Assembly (NCBI RefSeq): GCF_039919315.1
Contig: NZ_JBDSFX010000053.1
Coordinates: 1,120-65,119, forward strand
Direction of reading: 5' to 3'
Length of the DNA stretch: 64,000 nt
Source: Dyadobacter sp.
Lineage (GTDB): Bacteria; Bacteroidota; Bacteroidia; Cytophagales; Spirosomataceae
Shown here: piece by piece, positions 39,601-63,580 of the stretch
Layout: every line of letters begins with the position of its first letter
How positions within the stretch are numbered: position 1 is the stretch's first letter
Notes under the pieces: model-generated
Databases searched by the model: none
The model's input: only the letters and a program-made list of their open reading frames with translations
Told to the model about the DNA's origin: nothing
Translations under genes and position numbers: made by a program

Positions 39601-40158
39601 CCGAAGTTGTTTTCAGGATTTACAAATACATTTTCCTACAAAGGCTTCGACCTGAGCGTTTTGCTGACAAGTACCTATGGTAATGATGTTTACAACTATC
39701 TCGGCAAACTGAATACCAATGCAAGCAACATCAATTTGAGCCGTAACCTACTGGTACATGCTATGGATTATGCCAAACCGATTACTAAGGATGACGGTAC
39801 TGTAGGGTTGTCCAACCCCGGCACCGATGTGGCGCGGATCTCGAATGGTCCGAATGGCAACTTCGCGAGACATACCGATAAATGGGTGGAGGACGGTTCC
39901 TTTATCAGACTGAAAAATGTGTCGCTGACTTATAACCTGCCGGTATCGCTGGTATCGCGCCAGAAAGTGATCAGAGGGGCGAGATTTACGGTAGGTGCGC
40001 AAAACCTGGCCACTATTACGGGTTACTCAGGTTTTGACCCGGAGGTAGGTGCCTATGTATCACGTGATGCGAGCGCTTCCAATCAGGCCATCGGCCTCGA
40101 CTACGGACGGTATCCTTTGACACCGGTTTACACATTCAGTTTAGGCTTGGATTTCTAA
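36634..40158 (+). CDS. SusC/RagA TonB-dependent transporter with N-terminal STN extension
   Basis: STN-like domain, LEEVVVVGYG, NEPLYVVDG, SATAIYGSRATNG, WEET, EDGSFIRLKN; true start uncertain (36634-36688). Confidence 0.95.
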   Translation: MFKVMPGIYFLKTIVWDTMKLSLLQLCIAVVFTGVTFSHDRLSAQELLERRITLKIEDKSLKNVLSSIERTSEIKFIYNPNEIRSSAKVNFNASNEPLADALNKLFRPLAIRYEVAGKQVMLFKENKSSFTEDTVEPESNVATESTEAAVLAGVKGKVSDEKGDGLPGVSVVVKGTQRGTTTNSAGVYDLELGSGDNTLIFSFVGYLSQEVTVGSRSVIDIALKVDTKALEEVVVVGYGEMKRADLTTAQTSVTAKDIARTTNTTLEQAIQGRSAGVYVTQNSGQPGGGISVNIRGVNSISGSNEPLYVVDGVQIQGQSVSFGQQSSSNPLAGLNPADIESIEVLQGPSATAIYGSRATNGVLLVTTKRGKSGDTKISYGYQYSVQTPPPSLKVMDLKQYAQMVGEYHQLAGGDTPTEFLDPSLLGKGTDWQKELFKNAPMNKHQLSLSGGNDKTTYYLSGEYLKQEGVALGSGFNRYAFRLNLDNKPREWATIGANLSFNQTNDNLTTSQENVISSALQLTPQVPVKNIDGTWGGGDENNGANQFAPVNPIAIANLTTNKLVRRQLLGGINVGVKIMPGLNLRTSFNTNLGFSNSSYYVPTYKIGWAQNVTASYNNGSGVNTYWNWNQLLEYNKQFGKHSINVMLSHESQESSWKNLGGTRTGFLTNDILDLAAGDALTASNSGGSGDWAMESYLGRLNYNYGDKYIVMGTVRRDGSANFGADNKWGFFPSVSAAWRVSQEAFFQVPAISELKLRFETGITGNQGSGGIYSPMGTGTTPTTTGFLPTKYSNAGLKWEETKTNNFGINLALFENRIQFEFDYYIKNTDNLLMEKPLPWYMGTNGNGAVGSPTVNIGALQNKGWGFTVNTVNINKGGFKWESNLNLSSFKTKIKSFYSDAAFVDRTSWWMADWTQRSEVGKAPWLFRGYVEEGIFQSVAEIESSALPVDNNGVKLPVNVNNIWVGDVKFKDINGDGIINENDQTVIGNPWPKLFSGFTNTFSYKGFDLSVLLTSTYGNDVYNYLGKLNTNASNINLSRNLLVHAMDYAKPITKDDGTVGLSNPGTDVARISNGPNGNFARHTDKWVEDGSFIRLKNVSLTYNLPVSLVSRQKVIRGARFTVGAQNLATITGYSGFDPEVGAYVSRDASASNQAIGLDYGRYPLTPVYTFSLGLDF

Positions 40159-45814: not shown

Positions 45815-48800
45815 TTGAGATTTGTAGAATTAATTTATGTTATTGCAATTATACCATACGAATTGCTCTTGAAGAGGCTTTTTATCATCCTACTTTTTAT
45901 TTTTTGGACGTCAGAAAATGTGTTGGCCCAAGCTGGCTACACGGTTTCTCATTTTACTGATGACAATGGTTTGCCGCAGAACAGTGTGAAAGGTCTGGCG
46001 CCCGACAACGACGGGTATATCTGGCTGGCGACTGAAAATGGCCTCGCCCGTTTTGACGGTCATCGTTTCTATAACATCGAGAAATCTGCGCTGGGAATCA
46101 CCAGCAACCGTTTTTATCTTTTGATGCCTTCGTTGCAAGCCGATGGTACGGATGCAAAGGATCAACGAAACACGCTTGTGTATGCCGCGACGGATGCCGG
46201 TGAATATGCGAGGATTGGGAACGGGACGGCATTTTATGATTCAGCGTATACCAACGGAAGGATGAAGCGGCTCCCATTTATGCGAAATGGTGCCAGCAAC
46301 ACTTTCCTGGCCAGCGGTTTACCTACTTTCATGAGCAACATTGCAAAGCCGGAACACTACGTCATTCCCGTCGGATATGGAAACAGCAATGCGTATGTGA
46401 TCGACAGTACATCCGTATCGTTTTACAATGACCAGCAGCGACTCTACAAAGTACCTTTCGCCGATCAATCCTTTTGGACATTCTTCACAATGGGCCGTCT
46501 GCTTTACCATATGGATGATGACGGTTTCATTGCCAAAGTCACCGGTAACGGTGTTTCGAAGGTTGGCATTTCCGGGGACCTGATCAGGGATAATGGCTAT
46601 GACACTCAATTGACCGGGCTTACGTTATACTGGAACATTGCCAGCGATCAGGTTTGTTTTTATTTTCGCAAGAAACTGTATTCCGTTGATAATGAGCGGA
46701 ATGGCAGGTTGGCAACCAAACTGATATTGCAGGATTTTGACCTGGAAGAATTGAATATACAAACAGTTCACCGGGACGCTACGAACGGGACAATTTTCAT
46801 GGGCAGTATTTCGGATGGTTTTTATGTCCTGACAAAACATTCATTTGAGACGCTGCGGCACCAGGGAAAGGACATGGACAATGTGTTTTACGCGCAGCTG
46901 GATTATGGCAAAAACGCAGTCATGACGCCGACCGGGGTTATTTTGGAAAAAGACCCGGTAACCGGAAAGACCTTCTCCGGCAAACTGCCTTTTTTGGAAA
47001 AAATCAATCCGAATGATAAACGAACGCTTTTGAGAGATAAGGCGGGTTATATCTGGGTCAAGGCGGGGGACAAATTGTATCAGCTGGACATTGCTAATGA
47101 GAAAGTGATCCATGTATGGAGTTTTAGTGAAGAGGTCAAGCATATTTTTCAGGATAGCCGCGGCAACATCTGGATTGGTCTTGCCGAAAAAGGAGTGTAC
47201 CTCATCGATCTCTCGCAACCAGACTTCAAACCAAGGCACATTCAGGATGACATCAGGGTAACGTATTTTGAACAGGATCGGGCTGGAAAAGTGCTAGCCG
47301 GAACCATCAACGGACTTTACACATTTGATGCCGACGGTCATAAGAATGGCTTGGTACCCGGCACGGAGGACCTGTACATCAAAAGTATGTTCGTTGATCG
47401 TGGTGATCGTCTCTGGATGGTGGTCAATCAGGAAGGGCTGGTTTTATACGAACATAAAAAATTGATCAGCTTTCCGCTCGACAAAAACAGGTACCTGGGC
47501 AGTCCGCATTGCATTGTGGATGATACCAAAGGGTTTTTCTGGATACCAACAGATAAAGGGTTATTCCAGGTAGCGATCGAAGATTTGCTGAACTATGCCA
47601 AATCGCCGGTTTCGGAGCTCTTCTATATGTATCATGCAAAGGGCGACGGACTGCTGACGAACGAGTTCAATGGAGGTTGCCAGCCTTGCTCGGCGAGAAT
47701 AGATAATGGCTACATTTCGCTTCCTTCGTTGAATGGACTGGTCTGGTTCAAGCCTGAGCAGATTACAGCCAATGTTCCGGCAGGCCGCATTGTTTTAGAC
47801 CGCATACAGGTGAACAATAGCTTTCTGGCCACTACCGGGGATACATTAACGTTGCCCGGAGAACCCGTCCAGACCAAATTTTACTTTTCAACGCCCTACT
47901 ACGGCAATTCCAATAACCTGAGCTTATCCTATGCATTACTGAAAGAAGGGCATGCTGTCACACCAGCGGACTGGATTCCGATTTTAGGCCCCGATTTTAG
48001 CATTACATTTGCCAACCTGGATCCTGGGGCGCACAAGCTCATTGTGAGGAAAATGAATGGTTTTGGTAAAAACAATTACACCATCCGCACGATCTTGGTG
48101 ATAGTTCCACCACTATGGTACCAAACCTGGTGGGTAAGGGTGCTGTTCCTGATCGGTGCGGTGCTCATTATCTATCTTTACAATACTTTAAGGCTTAGAA
48201 ACATTTCAAACGAAAATGCGCGACTGGAAGAAATCGTGGCAAAACGTACCGAGCGCCTCAACCGCGCGCTGAGCGACATTGAAGAATCCAAAACCGAAAT
48301 GAGCCGACAGATACACATGCTGTCGAGGTTGCTGGCTTCGATCACCCACGACATTCAATCCCCGCTTAACTACATTATGCTTACCTCCGGCGCGATACCT
48401 GCCATGGTGCAACGCGGCGAGCTGAATGAGGTGACCGAAATAGGACAGGTGATTTCCAATTCTTCGCAACGGATGAGCGATCTGCTGCGTGGATTGCTGG
48501 ATTACATTAAGCTGCATGTTTACGGAAACAGTGTGCAGTTTGAAGATGTTAACCTCCGGATCCTTGTAGAAAACAAATACCAGATCTTTCAAAATGTCAT
48601 TGAGCTCAACGGGAACCAGTTTTTGAACGAAATACCGGACCATCTCACCGTTTCTTCCGACTACCAGATGCTGGCCATCATGATCCATAACCTCATTGAT
48701 AACGCAACCAAATTTACATGCAAAGGCGTGATCCGGGTTTTTTCTGAAATGAATGAGCAGGGCCAGGTCAGGCTGATGATTGCCAACACAGGAGAGGGGA

Positions 48801-48991
48801 TATCCGATGAACTGATGGAGGTGATCAATGCTGCGGTAACGGAGGAGGCTGACGACGTGATGAGGCCTTTCGGACGAAAAACGGGGCTGGGGTTGCTGAT
48901 CGTTAAAGAAATAGCGGAGCTGATACACGTTAAACTCTCATTGACCCGATCGCCCGAAACCTGTTTTGTAATGACGTTTCCATCCATGTAA
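45815..48991 (+). CDS. Sensor histidine kinase with periplasmic beta-propeller (HTCS-like sensor) region
   Basis: DNGLPQNSVK...GYIWLATENGL propeller repeats, EFNGG, PPLWYQTWW + TM, SITHDIQSPL, NLIDNATKF, TGLGL. Confidence 0.88.
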   Translation: MRFVELIYVIAIIPYELLLKRLFIILLFIFWTSENVLAQAGYTVSHFTDDNGLPQNSVKGLAPDNDGYIWLATENGLARFDGHRFYNIEKSALGITSNRFYLLMPSLQADGTDAKDQRNTLVYAATDAGEYARIGNGTAFYDSAYTNGRMKRLPFMRNGASNTFLASGLPTFMSNIAKPEHYVIPVGYGNSNAYVIDSTSVSFYNDQQRLYKVPFADQSFWTFFTMGRLLYHMDDDGFIAKVTGNGVSKVGISGDLIRDNGYDTQLTGLTLYWNIASDQVCFYFRKKLYSVDNERNGRLATKLILQDFDLEELNIQTVHRDATNGTIFMGSISDGFYVLTKHSFETLRHQGKDMDNVFYAQLDYGKNAVMTPTGVILEKDPVTGKTFSGKLPFLEKINPNDKRTLLRDKAGYIWVKAGDKLYQLDIANEKVIHVWSFSEEVKHIFQDSRGNIWIGLAEKGVYLIDLSQPDFKPRHIQDDIRVTYFEQDRAGKVLAGTINGLYTFDADGHKNGLVPGTEDLYIKSMFVDRGDRLWMVVNQEGLVLYEHKKLISFPLDKNRYLGSPHCIVDDTKGFFWIPTDKGLFQVAIEDLLNYAKSPVSELFYMYHAKGDGLLTNEFNGGCQPCSARIDNGYISLPSLNGLVWFKPEQITANVPAGRIVLDRIQVNNSFLATTGDTLTLPGEPVQTKFYFSTPYYGNSNNLSLSYALLKEGHAVTPADWIPILGPDFSITFANLDPGAHKLIVRKMNGFGKNNYTIRTILVIVPPLWYQTWWVRVLFLIGAVLIIYLYNTLRLRNISNENARLEEIVAKRTERLNRALSDIEESKTEMSRQIHMLSRLLASITHDIQSPLNYIMLTSGAIPAMVQRGELNEVTEIGQVISNSSQRMSDLLRGLLDYIKLHVYGNSVQFEDVNLRILVENKYQIFQNVIELNGNQFLNEIPDHLTVSSDYQMLAIMIHNLIDNATKFTCKGVIRVFSEMNEQGQVRLMIANTGEGISDELMEVINAAVTEEADDVMRPFGRKTGLGLLIVKEIAELIHVKLSLTRSPETCFVMTFPSM

Positions 48992-49000
48992 CTTTAAGGC

Positions 49001-50010
49001 ATGGGAAATCAGCAAAAACAATTCGTGATGGGCATGCTGGCTTATGCCTCGCAGAGAGATTTGTCAGCAGAAAAATTGTGCCGACTGTCGGATATAGACC
49101 TTTCCACGTTAATGGAAAGCGAATATTCCAATTTCTCGACCAAGCAGCTCAACGATTTATGGATGAATGCGTGCCATTTAAGTAGCGATCCGCATTTCGG
49201 GTTACATCTGGGGAATCGGTACAGCTTGCGGCACTCGGTATTGTGGGCGAGATCGTAAAAAGCAGCACTACCGTGGGACAGGCCATTACCCAGGCAGCAT
49301 CACTTACGGGGCTGATCACGGATATGTTTGCGATGGAGGTGGAGCAAGGGAAAAGTGACTTTACGATCCGTCTGATACCTGTGGAACCAAAGCGGAAGGA
49401 CGCGCCGGTTGCTTTTGAGCAAACGCTACACTTCTTTATGGTATTCGTCATTCACGAGCTGGACGGATTGATACTCGCCAAAATCCAACCCAAAGCAGTA
49501 CATTTTCCATCTTCGGCCATTGATTCGAAGGAACTGGAAAGGGTACTAAGATGCCGGCCTGTCAAAAAAAGAGAGGAGTATGCCATTACTTTTGACAATA
49601 AATATTGGGACCTCCCCATTCTCACAGCGAATTACGAATTACAAAAAAGCCTTCTTGAAAAAGTAGCGACAATCATCGGAAAAGACGCTGCGACAGAAAC
49701 GTACCAGTCGAAGATCTACCAGCATTTGTTGAAAAACGCCTATCTTGGCATTGTCCCACTGGAAGAGATCGCGGCGAATTTCAATGTCAGCACACGCAGC
49801 CTTCAACGGAAATTAAAGGAAGAGAATGTCACGTACCAGGAGCTGGCAGACCAGGTACGCAAGTCGCTGGCTATCCATTACCTCGATTCCGGAAGCTACT
49901 ATGTGAAGGAAATCTCCTACATGCTGGGCTACAATGAGCTGAGCGCTTTTTCCAGAGCCTTCAAGAGATGGACAGGTACGACACCAGCGTTGTATCAGAA
50001 GCAGGCGTAG
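49001..50010 (+). pseudogene. AraC-family regulator split by a single-base frameshift in a G run
   Basis: ORF1 reads ...DPHFGLHLG; the alternative frame from 49213 continues ESVQLAALGIVGEIVK... to an intact HTH (RSLQRKL, LGYNELSAFSRAFKRWTG). G4 at 49210-49213; G5 would restore one ORF. Confidence 0.85.
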
Positions 50011-52402: not shown

Positions 52403-52597
52403 TGGAAATCAGTTGGATTTATTTCTTTAAATTTAGTATAAATTCGAGTTTCTCATCATCAAATCGGTGCAAGGATTTTACTTCCTGATACATTAAATAT
52501 AAAAAATTATTTTTCGGTTAAATCGTCTTCTCCGATTGTCATGAAAATATGTTTCTTGAAAAAATATTTGCGTGTTAATTTTTAATAAGTTTATTTT

Positions 52598-52616
52598 GTC
52601 TATCATATTTATAGAC
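52598..52616. promoter_or_regulatory. Palindromic operator candidate
   Basis: GTCTAT-CATATTT-ATAGAC perfect 6-7-6 inverted repeat upstream of the sulfatase locus. Confidence 0.55.
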
Positions 52617-52681
52617 TATATGATTTTGTCAGATTAACCACCAGTCAGGCAAAACATGATTTCAAAATTCTTACCGTACCT

Positions 52682-52783
52682 ATGAAAGCGAAAGATTTAC
52701 TTCTCCTTCCGAATGTTTACGCCGGCAAGATGGTGGTTACCGTTTGTTCCCGCCCCATGCCCCCCCGTCGTTCCTGTTGTTGA
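52682..52783 (+). CDS. Putative Cys-rich leader peptide (33 aa)
   Basis: MKAKDLLLLPNVYAGKMVVTVCSRPMPPRRSCC*; ends in TGT TGT TGA; lies in the 5' leader of susC. Confidence 0.55.
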   Translation: MKAKDLLLLPNVYAGKMVVTVCSRPMPPRRSCC

Positions 52784-52989
52784 CCCCGCAAGAAGTCAGT
52801 ATTCAGGTTATCCCGAATTTTAAGGACTGATTCCGAGCCTATGCGCTGTCTTTTCGACCGTGTTTCGTAGGTGATCGTTTGTATAGGCCGTTCATTTGCC
52901 ACTCCGGAAGCGGGGCTGACATGTTGCGTATATATACGATGGTTATCACATTATCCATCCTGCATTATCCATCCTATTGCTCATTAATA

Positions 52990-55900
52990 ATGATTAAGAA
53001 AATTTACTACCTGATTATTTTATCAGGTTCGCTGCTATTCGGCGCTGACTATGCCAGAGCCCAGGACGTCATATCCGGCGTTGTCAAGGACGAATCAGGA
53101 CAGACCTTGCCCGGTGCCACAGTTGTGGAGAAAGGATCTGCCAGATACGCGCTGACGGACGTGGACGGCAAGTTCAGCATCGCTGCTGCCAAAGAATTTC
53201 CATTTACATTACAAATCAACATCACAGGGTTCCAGCAGCAGGAAATTGAGATCTACGAGCTCACTACCGAGGCTGTAGAAATAATCTTGAAGACGGCCAA
53301 CGTGCTCGATGAAGTGGTGGTAATCGGTTATGGTGAACAAAAAAGGAAAGACATTACCGGTTCGGTAGCTTCGGTGCCGATTGAAATAAAAAGCCAGCCG
53401 GTCGCCTCCGTGGAGCGTTTGTTACAAGGCTCAGTAGCGGGAGCCGTGGTTACGCAAACTTCCGGCCAGCCGGGCGGAGGCGTCAGCGTACAGATCCGCG
53501 GGAACAACTCCATTACCGCCGGTAGCGATCCATTGTACGTCATCGACGGTTTTCCGATCAACAATGATTACTCGGTAGCAGATGCTGGTGTAACGGACGG
53601 TTCGAAAATCAACCCGCTGTCTTCCATTAGTACGGCAGATATTGAGAATATCGACGTTTTGAAAGATGCCTCTGCGACTGCAATTTACGGATCTCGCGGT
53701 GCGAATGGCGTTGTGATTATTACCACCAAAAGTGGTACTAAAAACAAGTCTTCTGTCAACTATGACGCCTATTATGGAACTCAGCAGGTTTTAAGAACGA
53801 TTCCATTACTTAATGCGGCTCAATGGTGGCAATTAAGGAAAGATGCAGCTGTCAATTCCGGCAAAACGGCTTCCATTCCGAGCGTAACAGGTTACTCACT
53901 GGACACGACCGGTGCCGGTACCGACTGGCAGGACGCAGCATTCAGAAAAGCGTCCATTCAAAGCCATAACCTGTCCATTCTCTCAGGATCAGACAAAACC
54001 AAGCTGGCGTTTTCAGGTAATTATTTCAAACAAAATGGTATCCTGCAAAACACCAATTTCAGACGTTTATCAGCACGCGTCAATCTGGATCACCAGTATA
54101 ATGACCGTTTCCGCATTTTTACGAGCCTATCGGCCAGTAATACCAAGGCTAATGTAGCTCCTACGGCCATTGTAGGCAATTTGTTGCAAACTCCGCCGGC
54201 GCTACCGGTTTACCAGAATGATGGTTCGTTTGTGATCAACAGCCCATTCGAATCGGCGTTGCAAAACCCGATCAACTCTCTTTACAACCAATTAAACGAA
54301 ACCATTACGAACCGTTTTCTGGGTAACATTTCCGGCGAGTACACCATTGCTGACGGCTTAAAAGCGAAGATTTTGGTCGGTGCGGACATCATTGGTAATA
54401 AGCAAAACCGTTACCTGCCAAGTACCACGGCAGAAGGTCAGGCTTTGAGCGGAGATGCAATAGTAGGTTCAGTATTTACCAGTAACTGGCTGAATGAGAA
54501 CACGATCAGCTATGACAAGGAAATCAATGAAAAGAATAAAATCAATGCGGTAGCAGGTTTCACGGCACAGGTTTCCGAAACCAAAGGTGCGGTTGCAGAA
54601 GCTGCCGGATTCGCAACCGACGCGTTTGAATACAATAACCTGGCAACCGGTATCACCAACATTGCACCACGTTCGCTGGCTAGCAAATGGGCACTTGCAT
54701 CGTATCTGGGCAGGATCAACTACATTTTCGACGAGCGTTACCTGTTTACTTTTACATTACGCGCCGATGGATCCTCCCGTTTTGGCGAGGGTAAAAAATG
54801 GGGATACTTCCCGTCAGCAGCATTTGGCTGGAATGTCAATGAGGAAAAATTCTTTCAGCAGTTCAAAAAAGTCAGTTTGCTGAAACTGCGTTTGAGCGCG
54901 GGAACGACCGGGAATCAGAACATTCCTTCGTACCAGTCACTTTCTCAGCTGAGCTACTTCCGATACAATTTTTCAAACACGACTGTATCAGGTTATGCGC
55001 CTAATACGGTTCCCAATGCGAACCTGGGCTGGGAAAAAACATTCCAGGTTGATGCCGGAATTGACTTGGGCTTGTACAAAAACCGTATCAGCATCATTGC
55101 CGATTATTATTACAAAAGAACGACCGACCTGCTGCTGACCAGGACTGTACCAGGTACTTCGGGCCTCTCCGATTTCTACAATGGTCAGGCGTCTGTGGTG
55201 TACCAGAACATTGGAGAAGTGTCTAACCAGGGATTTGAACTGTATGTCAATTCCCGCAACCTGGAAGGCGCCTTCAAGTGGAATACCATTTTCATTTATT
55301 CTAAAAATACCAACAAGATCCTGAGCCTGGGCGACGGCGTAAACCAGATCATTCCGGTTATTTCCAATCCATCCATTGCGAAGGTAGGTTATCCGCTAGG
55401 TTCATTCATTGTCTATAAAACGGACGGTATCATTCAACACGGCGAAACGCCGCTTACGCCTCAGCAAAACAAAAGCCCGGGTGGACAGAAGTACCAGGAT
55501 ATCAATGGTGACGGCGTGATCACACAGGCTGGTGACCGGGTTGTGATCTCCAATCAGCCAGGGTTTACAACTGGACTCACCAACACATTCAGCTACAAAG
55601 GTTTTGACCTGACAGTTTTCTTCCAGGCGTCCATTGGCGGTAAATTGTACAATGCCAACCGCGCTAACCTCGAACTGGCAACGGGGTATGTGAATGGATC
55701 TGACGTGCTGCTGAACCGGTGGTCTGCTACCAACACCAATACCGAGGTAAAAGCCGCATTCCAGGATCCTGCGATCACTATTTCCGACCGGTTTATCGAA
55801 GACGCGACTTACTATCGTTTGAAAAACCTGTCATTCGGATACACTTTCCCAAAAACGCTGCTTTCGAAGGCAAGGATCGACAATCTGAGGATTTACGTAT

Positions 55901-56049
55901 CGGCGCAGAACCCGAAAACATGGACCAAATACACCGGTTTCGATCCCGAGGTGAGTTTGAACGGCCAATCGCTGATTAACAAAGGCATTGACCAGGGCGT
56001 TTACCCGAATAACAAATCTTACCAGGTCGGATTATCATTAACATTCTGA
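52990..56049 (+). CDS. SusC/RagA TonB-dependent transporter (sulfatase locus)
   Basis: Signal peptide from ATG 52990 (MIKKIYYL...ARAQD); LDEVVVIGYG, DASATAIYGSRGANG, LGWEKT, EDATYYRLKN. Confidence 0.95.
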   Translation: MIKKIYYLIILSGSLLFGADYARAQDVISGVVKDESGQTLPGATVVEKGSARYALTDVDGKFSIAAAKEFPFTLQINITGFQQQEIEIYELTTEAVEIILKTANVLDEVVVIGYGEQKRKDITGSVASVPIEIKSQPVASVERLLQGSVAGAVVTQTSGQPGGGVSVQIRGNNSITAGSDPLYVIDGFPINNDYSVADAGVTDGSKINPLSSISTADIENIDVLKDASATAIYGSRGANGVVIITTKSGTKNKSSVNYDAYYGTQQVLRTIPLLNAAQWWQLRKDAAVNSGKTASIPSVTGYSLDTTGAGTDWQDAAFRKASIQSHNLSILSGSDKTKLAFSGNYFKQNGILQNTNFRRLSARVNLDHQYNDRFRIFTSLSASNTKANVAPTAIVGNLLQTPPALPVYQNDGSFVINSPFESALQNPINSLYNQLNETITNRFLGNISGEYTIADGLKAKILVGADIIGNKQNRYLPSTTAEGQALSGDAIVGSVFTSNWLNENTISYDKEINEKNKINAVAGFTAQVSETKGAVAEAAGFATDAFEYNNLATGITNIAPRSLASKWALASYLGRINYIFDERYLFTFTLRADGSSRFGEGKKWGYFPSAAFGWNVNEEKFFQQFKKVSLLKLRLSAGTTGNQNIPSYQSLSQLSYFRYNFSNTTVSGYAPNTVPNANLGWEKTFQVDAGIDLGLYKNRISIIADYYYKRTTDLLLTRTVPGTSGLSDFYNGQASVVYQNIGEVSNQGFELYVNSRNLEGAFKWNTIFIYSKNTNKILSLGDGVNQIIPVISNPSIAKVGYPLGSFIVYKTDGIIQHGETPLTPQQNKSPGGQKYQDINGDGVITQAGDRVVISNQPGFTTGLTNTFSYKGFDLTVFFQASIGGKLYNANRANLELATGYVNGSDVLLNRWSATNTNTEVKAAFQDPAITISDRFIEDATYYRLKNLSFGYTFPKTLLSKARIDNLRIYVSAQNPKTWTKYTGFDPEVSLNGQSLINKGIDQGVYPNNKSYQVGLSLTF

Positions 56050-57644
56050 TGAAGCCAACATTAATTCCAATGAAAATGAAAGCATTTAAATATATCGTTC
56101 TCGCGATCACCACCATAGCGGCCACTTCCTGCGAAGAGTTCCTGAAAGAGGAGCCGGAAGCTTTTCTCTCAGAAGATCAATATTACAAAACGCAGGCGGA
56201 TGCTATCAATGCAGTTAATGCCGTTTACTTCTTCCTGAATTCGGGAGGTTCGTCCATTCAGACTCCCTACAATACATTGTTCAACACGGGTATGAACATG
56301 GCCAGCGACGACGAAGATCCAGGCCCTGGCGCGACCAACCCGGATGTACGTTCCTTGTCCGTTCAGGCGCATTCGTCGACCAACTTGCGGATTTATGAGC
56401 TTTGGCAGCAACATTATGCGGCCATTAAAAAAGCCAATGTTGTTTTGGAAAAAATTCCTGCGATTGACTTTGATAACACCGTAAAAGCCAGACTGATAGG
56501 CGAAACGAAATTCCTTCGGGCGTTGTATTATTTCAACCTGGTGCGGCTTTACGGCGACATTCCATTGATTTTGGAATACCAAAAATTCGTGAATGCAGCT
56601 GATTACGCCATCGCCAAAACGCCTTCTACGCAGGTCTACGATCAGATTGTGAAGGATTTGACAGAGGCTGCAAGCGTGCTTCCTGCGACTTATGCGTCCC
56701 CGAATATAGGTAGAGCGACTGCCGGTGCTGCCAAAGCATTACTTGCGAAAGTATACCTGACCAAAGCTTCGTTGCCATTGAAAGTGTCTGCAAACTACTC
56801 GGATGCGGTTAGTAAGGCGGAGGAAGTGCTTTCTTCCGCTGATGGCGGAACCGGGACTTATGGTTATGGTTTGGTCAACAATTATGCGGAAGTTTTTCTT
56901 CCGGCTTTTAAAAATAATAAAGAACACATTTTCTCTGCTCAGTTCAAGTCCAATTCTCTGGCGCAGGGAAATAATGAAAGTCCTCGTGCGATACTTTCCG
57001 GGATTCCGGGACTGAGCGGGAATTATGCTCATATGGTGCGCTACTATACGGTGGGCACTGATAAGTTTTTCAGTATTTACAAATTGTTTAAACCTACGGA
57101 TAAGCGTCGGGACGTCACTTTTGTGAGGAATTTCACTAGCCCTACCAATGGACGAAAATATGGATTGAGCATTGCTAATACTGCGGTTCCAAGCGACTCG
57201 ACACCTTTCTGGAACAAATGGTGGGACCCTAATTCTACTGCGGTAACCAACCAGTCGGCTGCTAATGTGCCGATCATTCGTTACTCCGAGCTGCTCTTGA
57301 TCCATGCGGAGGCCGAAAATGAGGTCAATGGCCCGACTGACAAAGCTTACAAATCACTGAACAAAGTCCGTAACCGTGCAGGTTTGCCCAATTTGACTGC
57401 TGGTATCACCAAAGACCAGTTCCGGGATTCATTGTACCTCGACCGTCGTTTGGAACTGGTTTACGAGTACCAGCGCTGGTTTGATCTGATCCGTCAGCGT
57501 GACGCGGCTTATAACGGCACTTTTGTGAAGAACCTGCATAAAGTCGGGAAGACCAATGCTGCACCGAAGCACGCATTTTACCCGATCCCGCAGTCAGAAA
57601 TTGATAACAATGCATTGCTGAAACAAAACCCGCTTTGGGAATAA
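56049..57644 (+). CDS. SusD/RagB lipoprotein
   Basis: Lipobox ATSC, GETKFLRALYYFNLVRLYG, IRYSELLL, RRLELVYE..RWFDL, YPIPQSE; TGATG overlap with susC. Confidence 0.95.
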   Translation: MKPTLIPMKMKAFKYIVLAITTIAATSCEEFLKEEPEAFLSEDQYYKTQADAINAVNAVYFFLNSGGSSIQTPYNTLFNTGMNMASDDEDPGPGATNPDVRSLSVQAHSSTNLRIYELWQQHYAAIKKANVVLEKIPAIDFDNTVKARLIGETKFLRALYYFNLVRLYGDIPLILEYQKFVNAADYAIAKTPSTQVYDQIVKDLTEAASVLPATYASPNIGRATAGAAKALLAKVYLTKASLPLKVSANYSDAVSKAEEVLSSADGGTGTYGYGLVNNYAEVFLPAFKNNKEHIFSAQFKSNSLAQGNNESPRAILSGIPGLSGNYAHMVRYYTVGTDKFFSIYKLFKPTDKRRDVTFVRNFTSPTNGRKYGLSIANTAVPSDSTPFWNKWWDPNSTAVTNQSAANVPIIRYSELLLIHAEAENEVNGPTDKAYKSLNKVRNRAGLPNLTAGITKDQFRDSLYLDRRLELVYEYQRWFDLIRQRDAAYNGTFVKNLHKVGKTNAAPKHAFYPIPQSEIDNNALLKQNPLWE

Positions 57645-57665
57645 TAGCTTTCCTGTGATAGGATC

Positions 57666-59258
57666 ATGATTGATTCGTTGAAAAAAATAGTTGCCTTCCT
57701 GGTATGGATAGTCGCGGTGCTTGTGTATCCGGCTGTCCATGCGCAGGACCAATCCCAAAAACCCAATATCATCCTCATTCTGGCCGACGATTTGGGTTTT
57801 TCGGATCTAGGTAGTTTTGGCTCTGAAATCAAAACACCTAACCTGGATAAACTAGCGGCGAATGGTTTGCGGTTAACACAGTTCTACAACAGCGGTAGAT
57901 GCTGCCCTTCCCGAGCCTCCCTTTTAACGGGACTTTATCCGCATCAGGCTGGGGTAGGGGATATGGTTCAGGACAAAGGTGCGTCGGCATATCAGGGCTA
58001 CCTGAGTGAAAACAGTGTGACGATTGCTCAATTATTGAAAACGGCAGGTTATCATACGATTGTTTCAGGCAAATGGCACGTTGGTCTGGTACCATCCGCA
58101 CTGGCCCACAATCGTGGTTTTGATCATTCATTTACATTACAAAACAATGGCAGCAGTTATTTCAACTCCGAACCACTTTATAACGACGGCCGGAAGGTAA
58201 CATTCCTGCTCAATGGGAAGGAAATTCACCGGCAGGATTCGTCGAAGTACCTTACCCAGGCCATTACCGATTTTGCGATTCAATCATTGGATCAAGTGAA
58301 AAACGATACTAATCCCTTTTTCCTTTATCTGGCCTATAATGCGCCGCATTGGCCGATACAGGCATTGCCGGAAGACATTACCCGCTACAAAGGCAAGTAT
58401 CTGCAAGGCTGGGACTCGGTGAGGGCGGCCAGATTTCAAAAACAGATAGAGCTGGGTATTATTTCAAAAGAGTGGACCCTTTCGGACCGGTATGAAAATG
58501 CGCCCGACTGGAACACGCTATCGAATGCTGAAAAGGAACATTGGGACACCCGTATGGCCATTTATGCCGCTATGGTAGACCGGATGGATCATAGCATAGG
58601 CGAAGTCCTGGCCAAACTAAAACAGCTCAAAAAGGACGAGAATACATTAATCCTCTTCATTTCGGATAACGGCGGAAGTGGCGATACTGTGAAACAATGG
58701 GACTATGTGACCCAAAAAAACGGAGAGCCAGGCTCGGTGGCATCTATCGACAGCTACGATCCGCCCTGGGGCAATGTCAGCAACACACCATTCAAGTTAT
58801 TCAAGAAAAATACACATGAAGGCGGAGTCGCATCACCATTCATCGCCTACTTTCCGGGAACTGTGAAACCGGGTACAATAAGCCACCAGGTAGCGCACCT
58901 CACCGACATTATGCCAACTTTCCTGGATTTGGCCGGGATCAAATATCCATCGGAATTCAATGGTAAACGACTAGTAGCCGCGGAGGGAATTTCATTGAAA
59001 AATTTGTTCAAAAACCCTCAGTTAACAAAGCCAAAGACTATTTTCTGGGAACATGAAGGCAGCCGGGCGGTGCGGCAAAATGACTGGAAACTTGTGGCGG
59101 AAATTAATCAGCCGTGGGAGTTATACAATTTGAAGAAAGACCGCACGGAGACGCACAATCTGGCAAATCAATACCCGGAAAAAGTATTGGAACTACAAAA
59201 GGAATATCTGGAATGGTCGCGGAAAGTGGGTGTGGTGGATTGGAATACGATCAAGTGA
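57666..59258 (+). CDS. Arylsulfatase (formylglycine-dependent S1 family, Cys-type)
   Basis: PNIILILADDLG, CCPSRASLLTG, SGKWHVG, APHWP. Confidence 0.93.
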   Translation: MIDSLKKIVAFLVWIVAVLVYPAVHAQDQSQKPNIILILADDLGFSDLGSFGSEIKTPNLDKLAANGLRLTQFYNSGRCCPSRASLLTGLYPHQAGVGDMVQDKGASAYQGYLSENSVTIAQLLKTAGYHTIVSGKWHVGLVPSALAHNRGFDHSFTLQNNGSSYFNSEPLYNDGRKVTFLLNGKEIHRQDSSKYLTQAITDFAIQSLDQVKNDTNPFFLYLAYNAPHWPIQALPEDITRYKGKYLQGWDSVRAARFQKQIELGIISKEWTLSDRYENAPDWNTLSNAEKEHWDTRMAIYAAMVDRMDHSIGEVLAKLKQLKKDENTLILFISDNGGSGDTVKQWDYVTQKNGEPGSVASIDSYDPPWGNVSNTPFKLFKKNTHEGGVASPFIAYFPGTVKPGTISHQVAHLTDIMPTFLDLAGIKYPSEFNGKRLVAAEGISLKNLFKNPQLTKPKTIFWEHEGSRAVRQNDWKLVAEINQPWELYNLKKDRTETHNLANQYPEKVLELQKEYLEWSRKVGVVDWNTIK

Positions 59259-59310
59259 AAGTTTTAAAACGCAGGAATTTCAAAGTATTGATCATCATAA
59301 ATTATCGATT

Positions 59311-61620
59311 ATGAAAAGAATAATATTACGTTTCAACCGCTGGGCACTGGCCGCATTTACATTGTGGTCAGCAAGCGCAATTGCCCAGCATGCACCTACT
59401 CAGCCTTATCAGGGGAAAATTGGGAAGACAGTTGCAGACACGCAGCAGTCGTGGCCGGAAAAGAAAAAAGCACCCAAAGGCGCGCCGAATGTGGTTTGGA
59501 TTTTGCTGGACGACATAGGTTATGGAGCAGTGAGCACATTCGGTGGACTCATTAATACGCCTACACTGGACAGTCTCGCCAATAATGGTTTACGATATAC
59601 CAATTTCCATACGACCGCGATTTGCGCACCAACCCGCGCGGCATTACTCACGGGACGCAACCAGCATTCGGCGCATATGGGATTATTCCCTGAAACTGCG
59701 ATCGGTACGCCAGGTTACGACGCGATTATGCCTTTTGAAAAAGCGACCATTGCGGAAATCCTGAAAGACAATGGGTACAACACGTTTGCATTAGGAAAAT
59801 GGCACATTACGCCGCTGGCCGATCTTACACCGTCCGGGCCATTTAACCGCTGGCCAACCGGACGAGGGTTTGAACAGTTTTACGGATTCCCATCCCGCGG
59901 CAGCATTGACCAGTGGCACCCCGAGCTATGGGAAGGTACCCATCGTGAACCGGATCGTCAGGATGGCAAGCATTTCAATGAATTACTGGCCAATCGGGCG
60001 ATCAGGTATTTGTCCGGACAAAAATCAGGCAACCCTGACAAGCCATTTTTCCTTTACATCGCTACCGGTGCAGGCCATGCGCCACATCAGGTTGCAAAGC
60101 AATGGTCGGACAAGTACAAAGGGAAATTTGACGGTGGCTGGGACGAGTACCGCGAAAAGGTGCTTGCCAATCAGATCAAACTGGGTGTAGTACCAAAAAA
60201 CACGAAATTGACAGACCGTAATGCGGGAATCAAGGCTTGGAATACGCTTTCGGCGGACGAGAAGAAGCTATACGCACGGTTTATGGAAACCTATGCGGGA
60301 TTCCTGGAATATACAGATTACGAAATTGGTCGGGTGATCAAGCATATCAAAGATTCCGGGCAACTGGATAATACTTTGGTGATCGTTTCGGTGGGCGATA
60401 ATGGAGCAAGTAAGGAAGGAACATTTGTAGGGACGGTCAATAATTTCGGCGCGGAATTGCCGGAGGAACAAAGGCTTAAAAAGAACCTGGAACAGATTGA
60501 CCTGATCGGTACCGAGTTTTCAAAAGTGAATTATCCACTGGGATGGGCGGCTGCCACCAATGTTCCGTTTCGGCAATGGAAGCAGGATGCGAATGCTGAG
60601 GGCGGCACGCATAATCCTTTAATCGTTTTTTATCCAAAAGGCATTCAGGAAAAAGGGGGGATTAGGAACCAGTACGGTCACGTGATTGATATTTTGCCTA
60701 CTACTTTGGAACTGACGAACATCAAGGCGCCGACGGCTGTGAATGGTATCAAACAAGATCCGATTGAGGGTACAAGCCTGGTTTATAGCTTAAATGACGC
60801 TGCCGCTAAAAATCGTCACCTTGTTCAGTATTATGAGATCAAAGGTTCAAGATCGATCTACAAAGACGGCTGGAAAGCTGGCGCATTGCACGTGAGAGGC
60901 CAGGAGTTTGAGAAAGACAAATGGGAGCTTTATAACCTGACTGAGGATTTTAATGAAGCCAATGATCTTGCCACTACCCAGCCTGCCAAGTTGAAAAAGC
61001 TGCGGGCATTGTTTGAAAGCGAGGCTACGAAGTATAATGTGTACCCGTTGAAAGACGGTACTGAGCCTTTTACTTTGCCAACGGCTTATAATGATGTGGA
61101 CAAAGTCGTGCTCTATCCCGGCCAGTCTACGATCATTGACATTGGCAGTCCGTTTGCGCTGAAACGTTCATTTTCCCTGGTAGCGGATGTGGAAAATCTG
61201 GGAGTAGAAACGGAAGGTGTGTTATTGTCACGCGGAGGCAGCGTGGGCGGTCTGAGCTTTTTTATTCAAAACCATAAGTTGCAGTTTGTCTATGCGGTTG
61301 GCGATGGGACGAAATATACGGCAAGTTCCGAAAATACCACGCTTCCGATCGGCAAGGCGGAATTGAAAGTCAGTGTGAAATATGATCAGAATGGTACGGG
61401 GTTGATCAGTTTGTATGCCAATAATATCAAAGTAGGCGAGACCTCTATTGGAAAAACTTCGGACGCATTGTACCTGCATGAAGGAGTGAATGTCGGTTTT
61501 GACGACCTGACACCGGTAGGGGATACCTATAAAGTGCCTTTTACCTATACGGGCAAAATCACTAAGGTGACTATTGATCTGGACCAGGACCAGCAGGCGC
61601 AATTGCGGACTGGGAAATGA
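59311..61620 (+). CDS. Arylsulfatase (S1 family, Cys-type) with C-terminal LamG-like domain
   Basis: PNVVWILLDDIG, CAPTRAALLTGRN, GKWH, HAPH; signal peptide from ATG 59311. Confidence 0.92.
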   Translation: MKRIILRFNRWALAAFTLWSASAIAQHAPTQPYQGKIGKTVADTQQSWPEKKKAPKGAPNVVWILLDDIGYGAVSTFGGLINTPTLDSLANNGLRYTNFHTTAICAPTRAALLTGRNQHSAHMGLFPETAIGTPGYDAIMPFEKATIAEILKDNGYNTFALGKWHITPLADLTPSGPFNRWPTGRGFEQFYGFPSRGSIDQWHPELWEGTHREPDRQDGKHFNELLANRAIRYLSGQKSGNPDKPFFLYIATGAGHAPHQVAKQWSDKYKGKFDGGWDEYREKVLANQIKLGVVPKNTKLTDRNAGIKAWNTLSADEKKLYARFMETYAGFLEYTDYEIGRVIKHIKDSGQLDNTLVIVSVGDNGASKEGTFVGTVNNFGAELPEEQRLKKNLEQIDLIGTEFSKVNYPLGWAAATNVPFRQWKQDANAEGGTHNPLIVFYPKGIQEKGGIRNQYGHVIDILPTTLELTNIKAPTAVNGIKQDPIEGTSLVYSLNDAAAKNRHLVQYYEIKGSRSIYKDGWKAGALHVRGQEFEKDKWELYNLTEDFNEANDLATTQPAKLKKLRALFESEATKYNVYPLKDGTEPFTLPTAYNDVDKVVLYPGQSTIIDIGSPFALKRSFSLVADVENLGVETEGVLLSRGGSVGGLSFFIQNHKLQFVYAVGDGTKYTASSENTTLPIGKAELKVSVKYDQNGTGLISLYANNIKVGETSIGKTSDALYLHEGVNVGFDDLTPVGDTYKVPFTYTGKITKVTIDLDQDQQAQLRTGK

Positions 61621-61759
61621 TTGTCAGGACACCGCAATAGAGGAATGTCAAATCGCATGATGTTACATGTCTGACGGCATTTTAAAATAAAATGTCACAT
61701 TTAATACACCTAAATCGCGTAGCGACGTACCATCGATACCAAACGGACCAACAATTCGA

Positions 61760-63580
61760 ATGAACAAACAACTGGTAACAATCTTCTTAGCAATATTCAT
61801 TTTCGGCGAAATCAATGCGCAGGATCGTCCGAACATCCTGTGGATTGTAAGCGAGGATAATACCACGATGCTAGGCAGTTACGGCGACAAATTCGCGACT
61901 ACGCCTAACCTGGACAAATTTGCTTCCGAAAGCATCCGGTACAAAAATGCATTCTCGACCGCACCGGTGTGTGCGCCTTCGCGTAACACATTGATCACAG
62001 GCATGTACCCGCCTTCCCTAGGCACAGAACATATGCGGAGCGAATATCCGGTACCTGATTTTGTGAGATTCTTTCCCAGGTATTTGCGGGAAGCAGGTTA
62101 CTATACGACCAACAATGCCAAAAAAGATTACAACACGGACGATCAGTCTGCGGAAGCGTGGGACGAATCGAGCAACAAGGCTACTTACAAAAACCGCAAG
62201 CCCGGTCAGCCTTTTTTCGCTGTTTTTAATCTGAATGTTTCGCATGAAAGTTCATTGCACGAGCCCGTGGCATCATTACATCACGACCCAGAGAAAGTGG
62301 TTTTGCCGCCTTACCATCCGGCCACTCCCGAGCTGAAACACGATTGGGCGCAGTACTACGACAAGCTGGAAGAAATGGACCGGCAGTTTGCGCAGCTTTT
62401 GAAGGAATTGCAGGATGAAGGCCTGGCCGAAAACACGATTGTTTTTTACTATGCAGATAATGGTGGCGTGCTGGCTCGTAGCAAGCGGTTTATGTACGAA
62501 TCAGGTCTGCATGTACCATTGATCATTCATCTACCTCCAAAGTATGCTCATTTAGCTAAGGAAAAACAAGGGACGGTGTCGGACAGGCTGGTCACTTTTC
62601 TGGACTTCGCGCCTACGGTTTTGAGTCTTACGGATATCAAAGTTCCTGACTATATGCAAGGCGGTGCTTTTTTAGGGAAACAGCAGAAACCGGAATCAGA
62701 GTATGCGTATGGCTTTCGCGGCAGAATGGACGAGCGGATTGACATGTCGAGATCGGTTCGTGATAAGAAATATCGTTACATCCGGAATTATTTGCCCAAT
62801 AAAATTTACGGTCAGTACCTGGAATATCTGTGGCGTGCGCCGTCGGTGAAATCCTGGGAGGATGCTTACAAAGCGGGAAAACTGAATGCTGATCAGTCGA
62901 AATTCTGGGAGGCGAAGCCTGCCGAGGAGCTATTCGATGTGGATGCTGACCCGCATAACATTCGTAACCTTGCCGGTGACGCGAAGTATAAGTCGGAACT
63001 CGTGCGCATGCGAAAAGCGAATGATCAATGGGTTCGAAAATTGAAAGATGTAGGGTTTATCCCGGAAGCAATACTTTATGAAATCGCGAAGGAAACACCG
63101 CTGTACGATTATGCAAGAAGCGGCCAATACGATCTGGAAAAGATCATTGCCACGGCTGACATTGCGTCTTCACGAAATCCTGCGCATTCAAAAGAATTGA
63201 TTAAAAGGCTCACCGACAATGATCCAGCGGTAAGATACTGGGCGGCGACCGGCCTGGCTGTCTTGAACGATGGTTCAGCGAAAGATTTGTTGAAAAAGTG
63301 CCTGAGTGACTCGGAGGCTGCTGTTCGGATTGCGGCAGCAGAAGCATTATATGTAACAAACACCGACAAACCGGGCGCGGTAGCAGCGTTAACAGAAGCT
63401 TTGAAAAGCGACAATCCTTATGTTCGCCTGCAGGCATTAAACATTTTGGATTTGATCGGTCAGGACGCAAAACCGGCGCTGGAACTGGTCAAGAAAATAG
63501 CAGATCAGAAGGCTGAAATGTTTGATTATGATATTCGTGCGGCGAAGGTGCTTTTGGAGAATTTAGGGAAGAGTGAATAA
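61760..63580 (+). CDS. Sulfatase (S1 family, Cys-type) with C-terminal HEAT repeats
   Basis: PNILWIVSED, CAPSRNTLITG; C-terminal DPAVRYWAA, EAAVRIAAAEAL, NPYVRLQAL. Confidence 0.9.
   Translation: MNKQLVTIFLAIFIFGEINAQDRPNILWIVSEDNTTMLGSYGDKFATTPNLDKFASESIRYKNAFSTAPVCAPSRNTLITGMYPPSLGTEHMRSEYPVPDFVRFFPRYLREAGYYTTNNAKKDYNTDDQSAEAWDESSNKATYKNRKPGQPFFAVFNLNVSHESSLHEPVASLHHDPEKVVLPPYHPATPELKHDWAQYYDKLEEMDRQFAQLLKELQDEGLAENTIVFYYADNGGVLARSKRFMYESGLHVPLIIHLPPKYAHLAKEKQGTVSDRLVTFLDFAPTVLSLTDIKVPDYMQGGAFLGKQQKPESEYAYGFRGRMDERIDMSRSVRDKKYRYIRNYLPNKIYGQYLEYLWRAPSVKSWEDAYKAGKLNADQSKFWEAKPAEELFDVDADPHNIRNLAGDAKYKSELVRMRKANDQWVRKLKDVGFIPEAILYEIAKETPLYDYARSGQYDLEKIIATADIASSRNPAHSKELIKRLTDNDPAVRYWAATGLAVLNDGSAKDLLKKCLSDSEAAVRIAAAEALYVTNTDKPGAVAALTEALKSDNPYVRLQALNILDLIGQDAKPALELVKKIADQKAEMFDYDIRAAKVLLENLGKSE

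Follow-up and report, generated by a model that had tools for sequence, protein, structure and literature searches.

A SusC/SusD locus with sulfatase genes in a soil Dyadobacter probably functions as an uptake and desulfation system for sulfate esters that is induced by sulfur limitation. The locus lies in a 64,000-nt stretch of DNA, referred to below as the window (always the whole stretch), where it spans 52585-61620 and possibly extends to 63580. SusC/SusD loci are nearly always read as serving carbohydrate foraging, and automated annotation of polysaccharide utilization loci (PULs) would label this one 'sulfated glycan'. The evidence presented here indicates another purpose, the mining of sulfur from organic sulfate esters, which constitute a large part of soil sulfur. 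Our interpretation builds on features that we observed directly, namely the composition of the encoded proteins, the conservation of that composition, the architecture of the leader, the operator regulon and the enzyme families. The initial annotation had proposed that the locus scavenges sulfur, and not carbon, under sulfur starvation. This proposal finds support in a short leader open reading frame (ORF) that ends in tandem Cys codons (poly-Cys leader) and in S-adenosylmethionine (SAM)-I riboswitches of orthologous operons, and it is further backed by the operator regulon, the AtsA-like sulfatases, the absence of glycoside hydrolases (GH) and polysaccharide lyases (PL) and the lack of a conserved PUL-type regulator. 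The features of the locus are as follows:

52585..52630, + strand: promoter-like block with a palindrome, putative operator; invariant in orthologous upstream alignments
52628..52650, + strand: 5' hairpin with loop AACCACC (52636-52642), at or near the predicted 5' transcript end; covariation
52682..52783, + strand: leader ORF MKAKDLLLLPNVYAGKMVVTVCSRPMPPRRSCC*, 33 codons; translation and 47 distinct homologous leader ORFs
52990..56049, + strand: SusC/RagA-type TonB-dependent transporter; TIGR04056, TIGR04057, Plug and CarboxypepD_reg matches
56049..57644, + strand: SusD-family lipoprotein; PF07980 and PF14322 matches, start overlapping the SusC stop
57666..59258, + strand: SulfA, periplasmic S1 (formylglycine) sulfatase, AtsA-like; PF00884, CCPSR motif at residue 79
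59311..61620, + strand: SulfB, 769-aa S1 sulfatase with a C-terminal extension; PF00884, CAPTR motif
61760..63580, + strand: SulfC, S1 sulfatase with C-terminal HEAT repeats; PF00884 and HEAT_2, CAPSR motif

The SusC matches its family models TIGR04056 (854.6 bits, cut-off 368.25) and TIGR04057 (68.4 bits, cut-off 46.2) as well as the domains PF07715 (Plug) and PF13715 (N-terminal CarboxypepD_reg), and its start at 52990 is backed by an alignment of orthologous N-termini. Judged by such model matches, the family assignments of SusC, SusD and the sulfatases are secure. SulfC begins 140 nt 3' of SulfB and is syntenic in L033-L037, L040 and L050; its membership of the operon is uncertain.

Sulfur content of the encoded proteins

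The ORFs within 52879-63580 were re-derived and counted, and Met and Cys were tallied per protein. The SusC counts 1019 aa, with the initiator as its sole Met and no Cys; the mature protein, after removal of the signal peptide, consists of 995 aa with a Met+Cys count of zero. The mature part of the SusD has Met at positions 82, 84 and 329, and its sole Cys is the lipidated lipobox residue Cys28. In SulfB the internal Met are residues 123, 140 and 325, and its one Cys, Cys105, lies within the catalytic CAPTR motif. The other SusC of the window (36634-40158) contains 14 Met in its mature part and the partner SusD 12. Our recount agrees in every case with the initial annotation, which had described a SusC free of Met and Cys past its initiator, a mature SusD with three Met and only the lipidated Cys, a 769-aa sulfatase with three internal Met and only the catalytic Cys, and about 14 and about 12 Met in the other pair. 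SulfA is only mildly depleted (1.4% Met+Cys, with five internal Met and the CC of CCPSR).

The host genome (7.76 Mb, 110 contigs, crude gene calls) served for comparison. Its lowest-sulfur proteins are mainly outer-membrane or secreted proteins, and a class-matched comparison is therefore needed. Among the approximately 90 full-length SusC of the genome, with a median Met+Cys of 1.2-1.3%, the target has the lowest or next-to-lowest value; when a negative binomial is fitted to the 91 SusC that do not belong to the regulon described below, zero Met+Cys in 995 aa has a probability of approximately 3e-5. The target SusD ranks first of 66 SusD for low sulfur and SulfB first of 22 sulfatases, and all six lowest-sulfur sulfatases of the genome sit behind the operator (Mann-Whitney p = 0.005). 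Met+Cys is thus far below that of class-matched proteins, and the expectation of the initial annotation that the pair would fall outside the normal genome spread is borne out. Since Cys is near 0% in every SusC of the genome, only the absence of Met is informative for this protein. Met is also the sole strong compositional outlier of the target (z = -3.0 against the 91 other SusC), with Ile and Gln making up the difference. Trp, Tyr and Phe occur at normal levels, which argues against a general avoidance of oxidisable residues.

The depletion is conserved. SusC orthologues at 75-89% identity occur in approximately 18 Dyadobacter genomes; in all 19 orthologues the mature part aligns as an ungapped 995 aa with 0-4 Met+Cys, and nine have none. 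A control orthogroup from the same genus and of similar divergence, built on the other SusC of the window, holds 12-17 Met, ten of them at invariant positions.

Operator, leader and related operons

Alignment of the 590 nt upstream of SusC with orthologous regions revealed the operator block. It contains a perfect palindrome, GTCTAT (52598-52603) N7 ATAGAC (52611-52616), prefixed by TTTG and located approximately 390 nt 5' of the SusC start. A palindrome search of a public genome collection returned 66 DNA stretches with at least one match, and its occurrence is essentially restricted to the Cytophagales, including Dyadobacter. A weight matrix was built from 39 sites and used to scan the 7.76-Mb genome. 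Nine sites scored at or above the cut-off, eight of which precede sulfatase, SusC or sulfur-free genes:

C53: target operon, poly-Cys leader present
C51: sulfatase operon including a formylglycine-generating enzyme (FGE) gene
C75: paralogous SusC/D-sulfatase cluster
C75: sulfur-free 321-aa PstS-like binding protein and sulfatase
C101: lone sulfatase
C54 (sites): SusC/D-sulfatase set, a sulfatase and a fatty-acid-hydroxylase-family gene

Judged by the genes that follow the sites, the regulon is sulfatase-specific. No single regulator family recurs beside all operator sites; NarL-type two-component pairs flank two regulon clusters and a Crp-like gene flanks one.

The leader ORF follows the operator and the 5' hairpin. 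Its tandem Cys codons TGT TGT (52775-52780) abut the stop codon TGA (52781-52783), giving a short 5' ORF with tandem codons of a candidate sensed amino acid, as is typical of attenuator leader peptides. All 47 distinct homologous leader ORFs (21-53 codons) carry a terminal Cys run, and in 36 of them Cys stands immediately 5' of the stop. Cys makes up 39% of the last eight residues and 2.7% elsewhere. The run varies in form (CC, CCC, CCCC, CCxCC) and both Cys codons are used (TGT 138, TGC 44), which fits selection on the decoding of tRNA-Cys and not on a fixed nucleotide motif. The ORFs start 70-97 nt 3' of the promoter motif, behind the conserved hairpin, and the mRNA is predicted not to be leaderless. 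By a strict criterion, a downstream Cys-run ORF is found at 35 of 44 Cytophagales motif sites versus 0 of 24 chance matches in other phyla. The target genome has four poly-Cys leaders (C53, C101, C54 and C75). When the genome was scanned for short Cys-run ORFs without the other elements, approximately 37 matches were found that look like chance, and none of them stands at a gene identified as sulfur-related except the four regulon loci.

The 5' hairpin is supported by covariation among 41 distinct versions, which indicates a real structure: pair -3:+5 is G-C in 18 and U-A in 20, pair -9:+11 shows six pair types, and for several pairs the number of types is three to six. Pairing holds in 179 of 246 cells with the stem in register and falls to 75-134 when it is slid. 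Codons 17-19 of the leader ORF contain GGUGGUU (52732-52738), the perfect complement of the hairpin loop AACCACC. In other leader types this complement lies in the apical loop of a second hairpin and is unpaired in 13 of 13 minimum-energy folds. The loop and its complement are probably part of a switch.

A 9-codon ORF, MISKFLPYL* (window 52656-52685), precedes the leader ORF, and its stop overlaps the leader start (ATGA). It is probably non-functional, judging from the absence of its ATG in the closest orthologous leaders. PF04116 fatty-acid-hydroxylase-family membrane proteins are encoded directly behind poly-Cys leaders in the target genome (G000:C54:95394-96467, equal to L119:17394-18467) and elsewhere (L043:1828-2949, L053:6271-7101, L112:5293-6237), and a PF04116 gene is the first gene ahead of the SusC/D pair in many Dyadobacter genomes. 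A role of these proteins in lipid remodelling away from sulfonolipids is speculative.

Related operons beyond Dyadobacter, in Chryseolinea, a Fulvivirgaceae bacterium and a Cytophagaceae bacterium (YF14B1), have the order binding protein, SusC, SusD, sulfatase. In these three types of loci a sulfatase gene encoding approximately 775-786 aa follows SusD, of which only the gene start falls within the loci examined; their SusC has two Met and their SusD two to four. The same operator-like palindrome, CCACC hairpin and short ORF lie upstream, and the short ORFs end in CCCC*, CCCCCMC* or CCCCTCL*. A SAM-I riboswitch (RF00162, gathering score 44.4) was detected in the Chryseolinea locus L148 (76.4 bits) and the Fulvivirgaceae locus L149 (71.6 bits), in both cases between the operator/promoter and the poly-Cys ORF, with its 3' end 3-10 nt from the start codon of that ORF. 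Locus L162 also combines a SAM-I riboswitch (71.6 bits), upstream of its binding-protein gene, with a poly-Cys short ORF. SAM-I in orthologous leaders is thus independent evidence for a response of the module to sulfur amino-acid status.

The binding protein in these operons belongs to the family of the PstS-like periplasmic protein of the target genome (G000:C75:175138-176103, L001:5138-6103), which likewise stands first in the operon of the C75 cluster. Of 120 homologues (P0001-P0120), 110 lack mature Met and Cys, down to 57% identity, and remoter members (37-43% identity) have 0-2 Met. The family is annotated as phosphate-binding at its source, and the homologue in L099 gives a weak PF12849 match; the protein may bind sulfate or sulfate esters. 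Its distribution within the order is patchy (16 of 251 genomes, 13 of 118 genera).

Desulfation enzymes and competing explanations

The best solved relatives of SulfA are 7ALL (8e-100) and the Pseudomonas aeruginosa arylsulfatase AtsA (1HDH; 1.4e-96, nearly full length), and the catalytic part of SulfB aligns with the 1HDH family (4.6e-70). On these matches, SulfA and SulfB are predicted to be AtsA-like arylsulfatases. In P. aeruginosa PAO1, atsA is induced more than 95-fold by sulfur starvation (PMC12581299). All three sulfatases carry Cys-type CxPxR motifs (CCPSR, CAPTR and CAPSR), and five loci of the genome match the FGE family PF03781, one of them within an operator-bearing operon. Domain, motif and maturation enzyme together assign the enzymes, from sequence, to the S1 formylglycine sulfatases. 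Genes for CysH and CysD are present in the genome.

SusC/D with sulfatases is also the usual signature of sulfated-glycan PULs, and several observations collected in this section weigh against sulfur scavenging. The locus could be an ordinary carbon-harvesting PUL, in which low Met would reflect protection against surface oxidation or the cost economy of highly expressed proteins. The location of the lowest-sulfur proteins, mainly in the outer membrane or secreted, would fit this explanation, as would the C1 SusC (G000:C1:252560-256045, L003), which has one Met and no Cys in 1030 aa and no sulfatase link. Because this C1 SusC lies outside the regulon, low sulfur alone is not diagnostic. SulfC, moreover, with ten internal Met and two Cys (2.1% Met+Cys), is not depleted for a sulfatase, and several orthologous SusC/D pairs have no adjacent sulfatases (L039, L041-L046). 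We nevertheless judge a carbon PUL improbable. When the five operon genes and the flanking genes were scanned against Pfam, no GH, PL or carbohydrate esterase emerged, leaving the locus without the carbohydrate-active enzymes of a canonical glycan PUL; the matches were limited to sulfatases, kinases, an AraC regulator, DUF6934 and an aldehyde dehydrogenase. Across the orthologous loci compared, no hybrid two-component system (HTCS), extracytoplasmic function (ECF)-sigma/anti-sigma or SusR regulator is conserved with the locus, and the upstream gene varies (a hybrid histidine kinase here, a PAS-histidine kinase or FA_hydroxylase gene elsewhere). The undepleted aromatic residues and the approximately 12 Met kept by the roughly 90 other SusC in the same cell envelope also argue against surface oxidation or cost, and the poly-Cys leader, together with SAM-I in other genera, stands on orthologous operons.

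The C1 SusC is neighboured by a sigma/FecR pair, a SusD, a PSCyt1-PSCyt2-PSD1 protein and a DUF1501 protein, with no sulfatase. Another sulfur-poor protein of the genome is the C73 TonB-dependent receptor (G000:C73:14954-17521, L004:7954-10521; 855 aa), which is devoid of Met and Cys beyond residue 30. Two relatives (L044, L046) have orthologues of it next to their SusC/D locus, and in a metagenome-assembled genome of the Cytophagales (L110) the palindrome precedes a similar receptor. Membership of the operator regulon was rejected for the C73 receptor and the C1 SusC, as their matrix scores are at background (-7.7 and -17.3).

The absence of Met could further be an accident of history, in which a Met-poor ancestor passed on its composition and horizontal transfer spread it, with no present selective value. 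Between the target SusC and the YF14B1-type SusC (L150:6969-10013), which comes from a different Cytophagales family, identity reaches 79%, a level matching that within the genus, versus 51-55% to the in-genome paralogue; the target is therefore the orthologue of the SusC in the YF14B1-type locus. The high identity across families suggests recent horizontal movement of the module within the Cytophagales, which reduces the number of independent lineages. A test of Met gain within the genus gave 11 of 407 variable columns for the target versus 16 of 314 for the control, of which about half would be gains; the rates are similar and thus do not demonstrate that purifying selection still acts on SusC within the genus. 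The gains are concentrated in lineages whose SusC/D pair has lost its sulfatases, a pattern that is suggestive and phylogenetically confounded. Even so, we consider an accident the least probable of the explanations, given the probability of approximately 3e-5 under the SusC class distribution, the depletion shared by SusD, SulfB, the 55% paralogue clade and the binding-protein family to approximately 37% identity, and its coincidence with sulfur-sensing regulatory elements.

As to the leader, the short ORF might not sense Cys-tRNA and instead be an untranslated RNA or DNA element or encode a functional Cys-rich peptide, with control exerted by the operator regulator (and by the riboswitch where present). 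The operator alone could account for co-regulation, and attenuation structures could not be defined. No canonical intrinsic terminator was found between the leader ORF and SusC (consensus scan of 52783-52990), and the mode of attenuation may therefore be translational or Rho-dependent. When 16 aligned leaders were folded together, the 5' hairpin was the only robust structure that they shared, and folds of 12 segments around the Cys codons were mostly at shuffle level, with L044 (z = -2.0) and L148 (z = -5.3) as exceptions. The CCACC:GGUGG pairing shows no covariation, as the cores are invariant and the flanks pair poorly. The window itself gave no match to RF00162 at the gathering score, and none at E<=1 within 52560-53000; Rfam searches of the window and the Dyadobacter leader loci found no known RNA family. 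A candidate pairing of 52779-52789 with 52910-52920 was rejected, its 3' partner not being kept in the 15 closest leader homologues. A non-sensing ORF is nonetheless unlikely, in our view to the same degree as a carbon PUL. Frame, start (MKA...) and stop are kept in spite of the length range, the Cys run varies in form and codon and mostly abuts the stop, the ORF has no accompanying peptide-modifying or export genes, and, the Cys run apart, the peptide shows little conservation from one leader type to the next.

If the locus indeed scavenges sulfur, the SusC/SusD pair would capture organic sulfate esters and import them across the outer membrane, FGE-matured periplasmic AtsA-like sulfatases would release sulfate, and this would be assimilated via the CysD/CysH pathway of the cell. 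The abundant components of this kit would have been purged of Met and Cys because the kit must be made when both are scarce. We infer induction under sulfur limitation, and a dual control. A factor binding the operator, a sequence shared with the other sulfatase loci of the genome, would set transcription, and scarcity of Cys-tRNA would stall ribosomes on the tandem Cys codons and relieve attenuation of the downstream genes, with the 5' loop AACCACC and the GGUGGUU in the leader ORF taking part in the switch.

A broader interpretation, which we advance tentatively and with the balance somewhat against it, is that of a mobile, PUL-shaped Cytophagales machine for sulfur instead of carbon, consisting of a sulfur-free oxyanion-binding protein, SusC, SusD and an AtsA-like sulfatase and governed by an undescribed composite leader that would integrate SAM and Cys-tRNA status. 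The four layers of this leader would be the operator, in some genera a SAM-I aptamer directly adjoining the sensor-ORF start, the poly-Cys ORF and the hairpin loop contacting a GGUGGUU loop or strand. If true, ribosome-dependent attenuation would gain a new type, in a phylum not known to use Shine-Dalgarno initiation.

Known systems and neighbouring genes

The Pseudomonas ats/sft cluster (atsACBR-sftR-atsK-sftP) encodes AtsA and the TonB-dependent receptor SftP (PMC3596284). This cluster belongs to the response to sulfate starvation. Like the Dyadobacter locus, it combines a TonB-dependent receptor of the outer membrane with an AtsA-type arylsulfatase, a pairing that serves the scavenging of sulfur there and probably also here. 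The Dyadobacter locus differs in its use of SusC/SusD, the PUL architecture of the Bacteroidota, without an ABC importer in the locus; in its poly-Cys leader and palindromic operator (with a SAM riboswitch in relatives) in place of the LysR-type CysB/SftR; and in the completeness of its depletion (0 of 995 residues).

Sulfated-glycan PULs, such as those of Bacteroides for mucin and glycosaminoglycans and of marine bacteria for carrageenan and ulvan, likewise have SusC/SusD followed by S1 formylglycine sulfatases with signal peptides. The target has no glycoside hydrolase or polysaccharide lyase and no conserved HTCS, ECF-sigma or SusR-type regulator; its sulfatases are nearest to the AtsA group, its components are sulfur-purged and its regulation appears to be sulfur-linked.

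Mycobacteria use poly-Cys leaderless short ORFs (the 'Cys ribulon'), and two consecutive Cys codons suffice there for cysteine-responsive attenuation (Canestrari et al., 10.1101/834739). Common to both cases are a short ORF with at least two consecutive Cys codons ahead of sulfur- or cysteine-related operons, several independent loci per genome and ribosome pausing at scarce Cys-tRNA as the proposed signal. The target belongs to another phylum, has a predicted 5' untranslated region of several tens of nt with a conserved hairpin and is not leaderless; it serves uptake and scavenging genes and not biosynthesis, and it is combined with an operator and, in some genera, SAM-I. Bacteroidota are not known to rely on Shine-Dalgarno pairing, and the Ms5788A mechanism of ribosome-binding-site sequestration therefore need not apply. 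Cysteine-sensing leader ORFs, shown so far in mycobacteria, would thereby be extended to the Bacteroidota, where very little is known on sulfur regulation or on leader-peptide attenuation without Shine-Dalgarno initiation.

Elemental sparing of sulfur is familiar from cyanobacterial alternative phycobiliproteins and from the sulfur-assimilation enzymes of E. coli and yeast, proteins required at times of sulfur scarcity that have selectively lost Met and Cys; sulfate-starvation-induced proteins of Pseudomonas and E. coli are likewise poor in both residues. Here the elimination is total in an outer-membrane barrel of approximately 1000 residues and concerns a whole operator-defined Cytophagales regulon, and the sulfur-free barrel of 995 residues is an unusually clean example of such sparing. 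Each of the principles involved, namely sulfur sparing, TonB-dependent uptake of sulfate esters, poly-Cys attenuators and SAM-I riboswitches, is already known. In the literature searched, no report was found of sulfur scavenging by SusC/D or of Cys leaders in Bacteroidota, and the combination of a sulfur-devoted, sulfur-purged SusC/SusD pair with such a leader in this phylum is new with respect to that literature. Comparable loci can be recognized by Met-free SusC/SusD, a poly-Cys leader ORF, a SAM-I riboswitch and the GTCTAT-N7-ATAGAC operator.

Upstream of the locus, at window positions 45815-50010, lies a 1058-aa Reg_prop/HisKA/HATPase protein without the receiver and helix-turn-helix domains that hybrid two-component regulators of PULs usually have. 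Next comes a 255-aa protein of the AraC type, encoded separately, with an Arabinose_bd match that begins at model position 62; the two may represent a split or rearranged regulator. On the other side, a rhodanese-thioredoxin fusion (0 Met, 2 Cys) is absent 3' of SulfC in the window and present at that place in several relatives (L033:2642-3364, also L034, L036, L052 and L099), and in D. koreensis it stands behind the operator. Beside the Chryseolinea operon (L148:1-2733) a gene for an SrpI-like encapsulin shell and a cysteine desulfurase gene were found, and further SAM-I riboswitches precede small hydrolase genes and, in L149, PhyH-family genes (L148:2829-2930; L149:3328-3430). Encapsulin, desulfurase and the additional riboswitches together look like a local 'sulfur island'.

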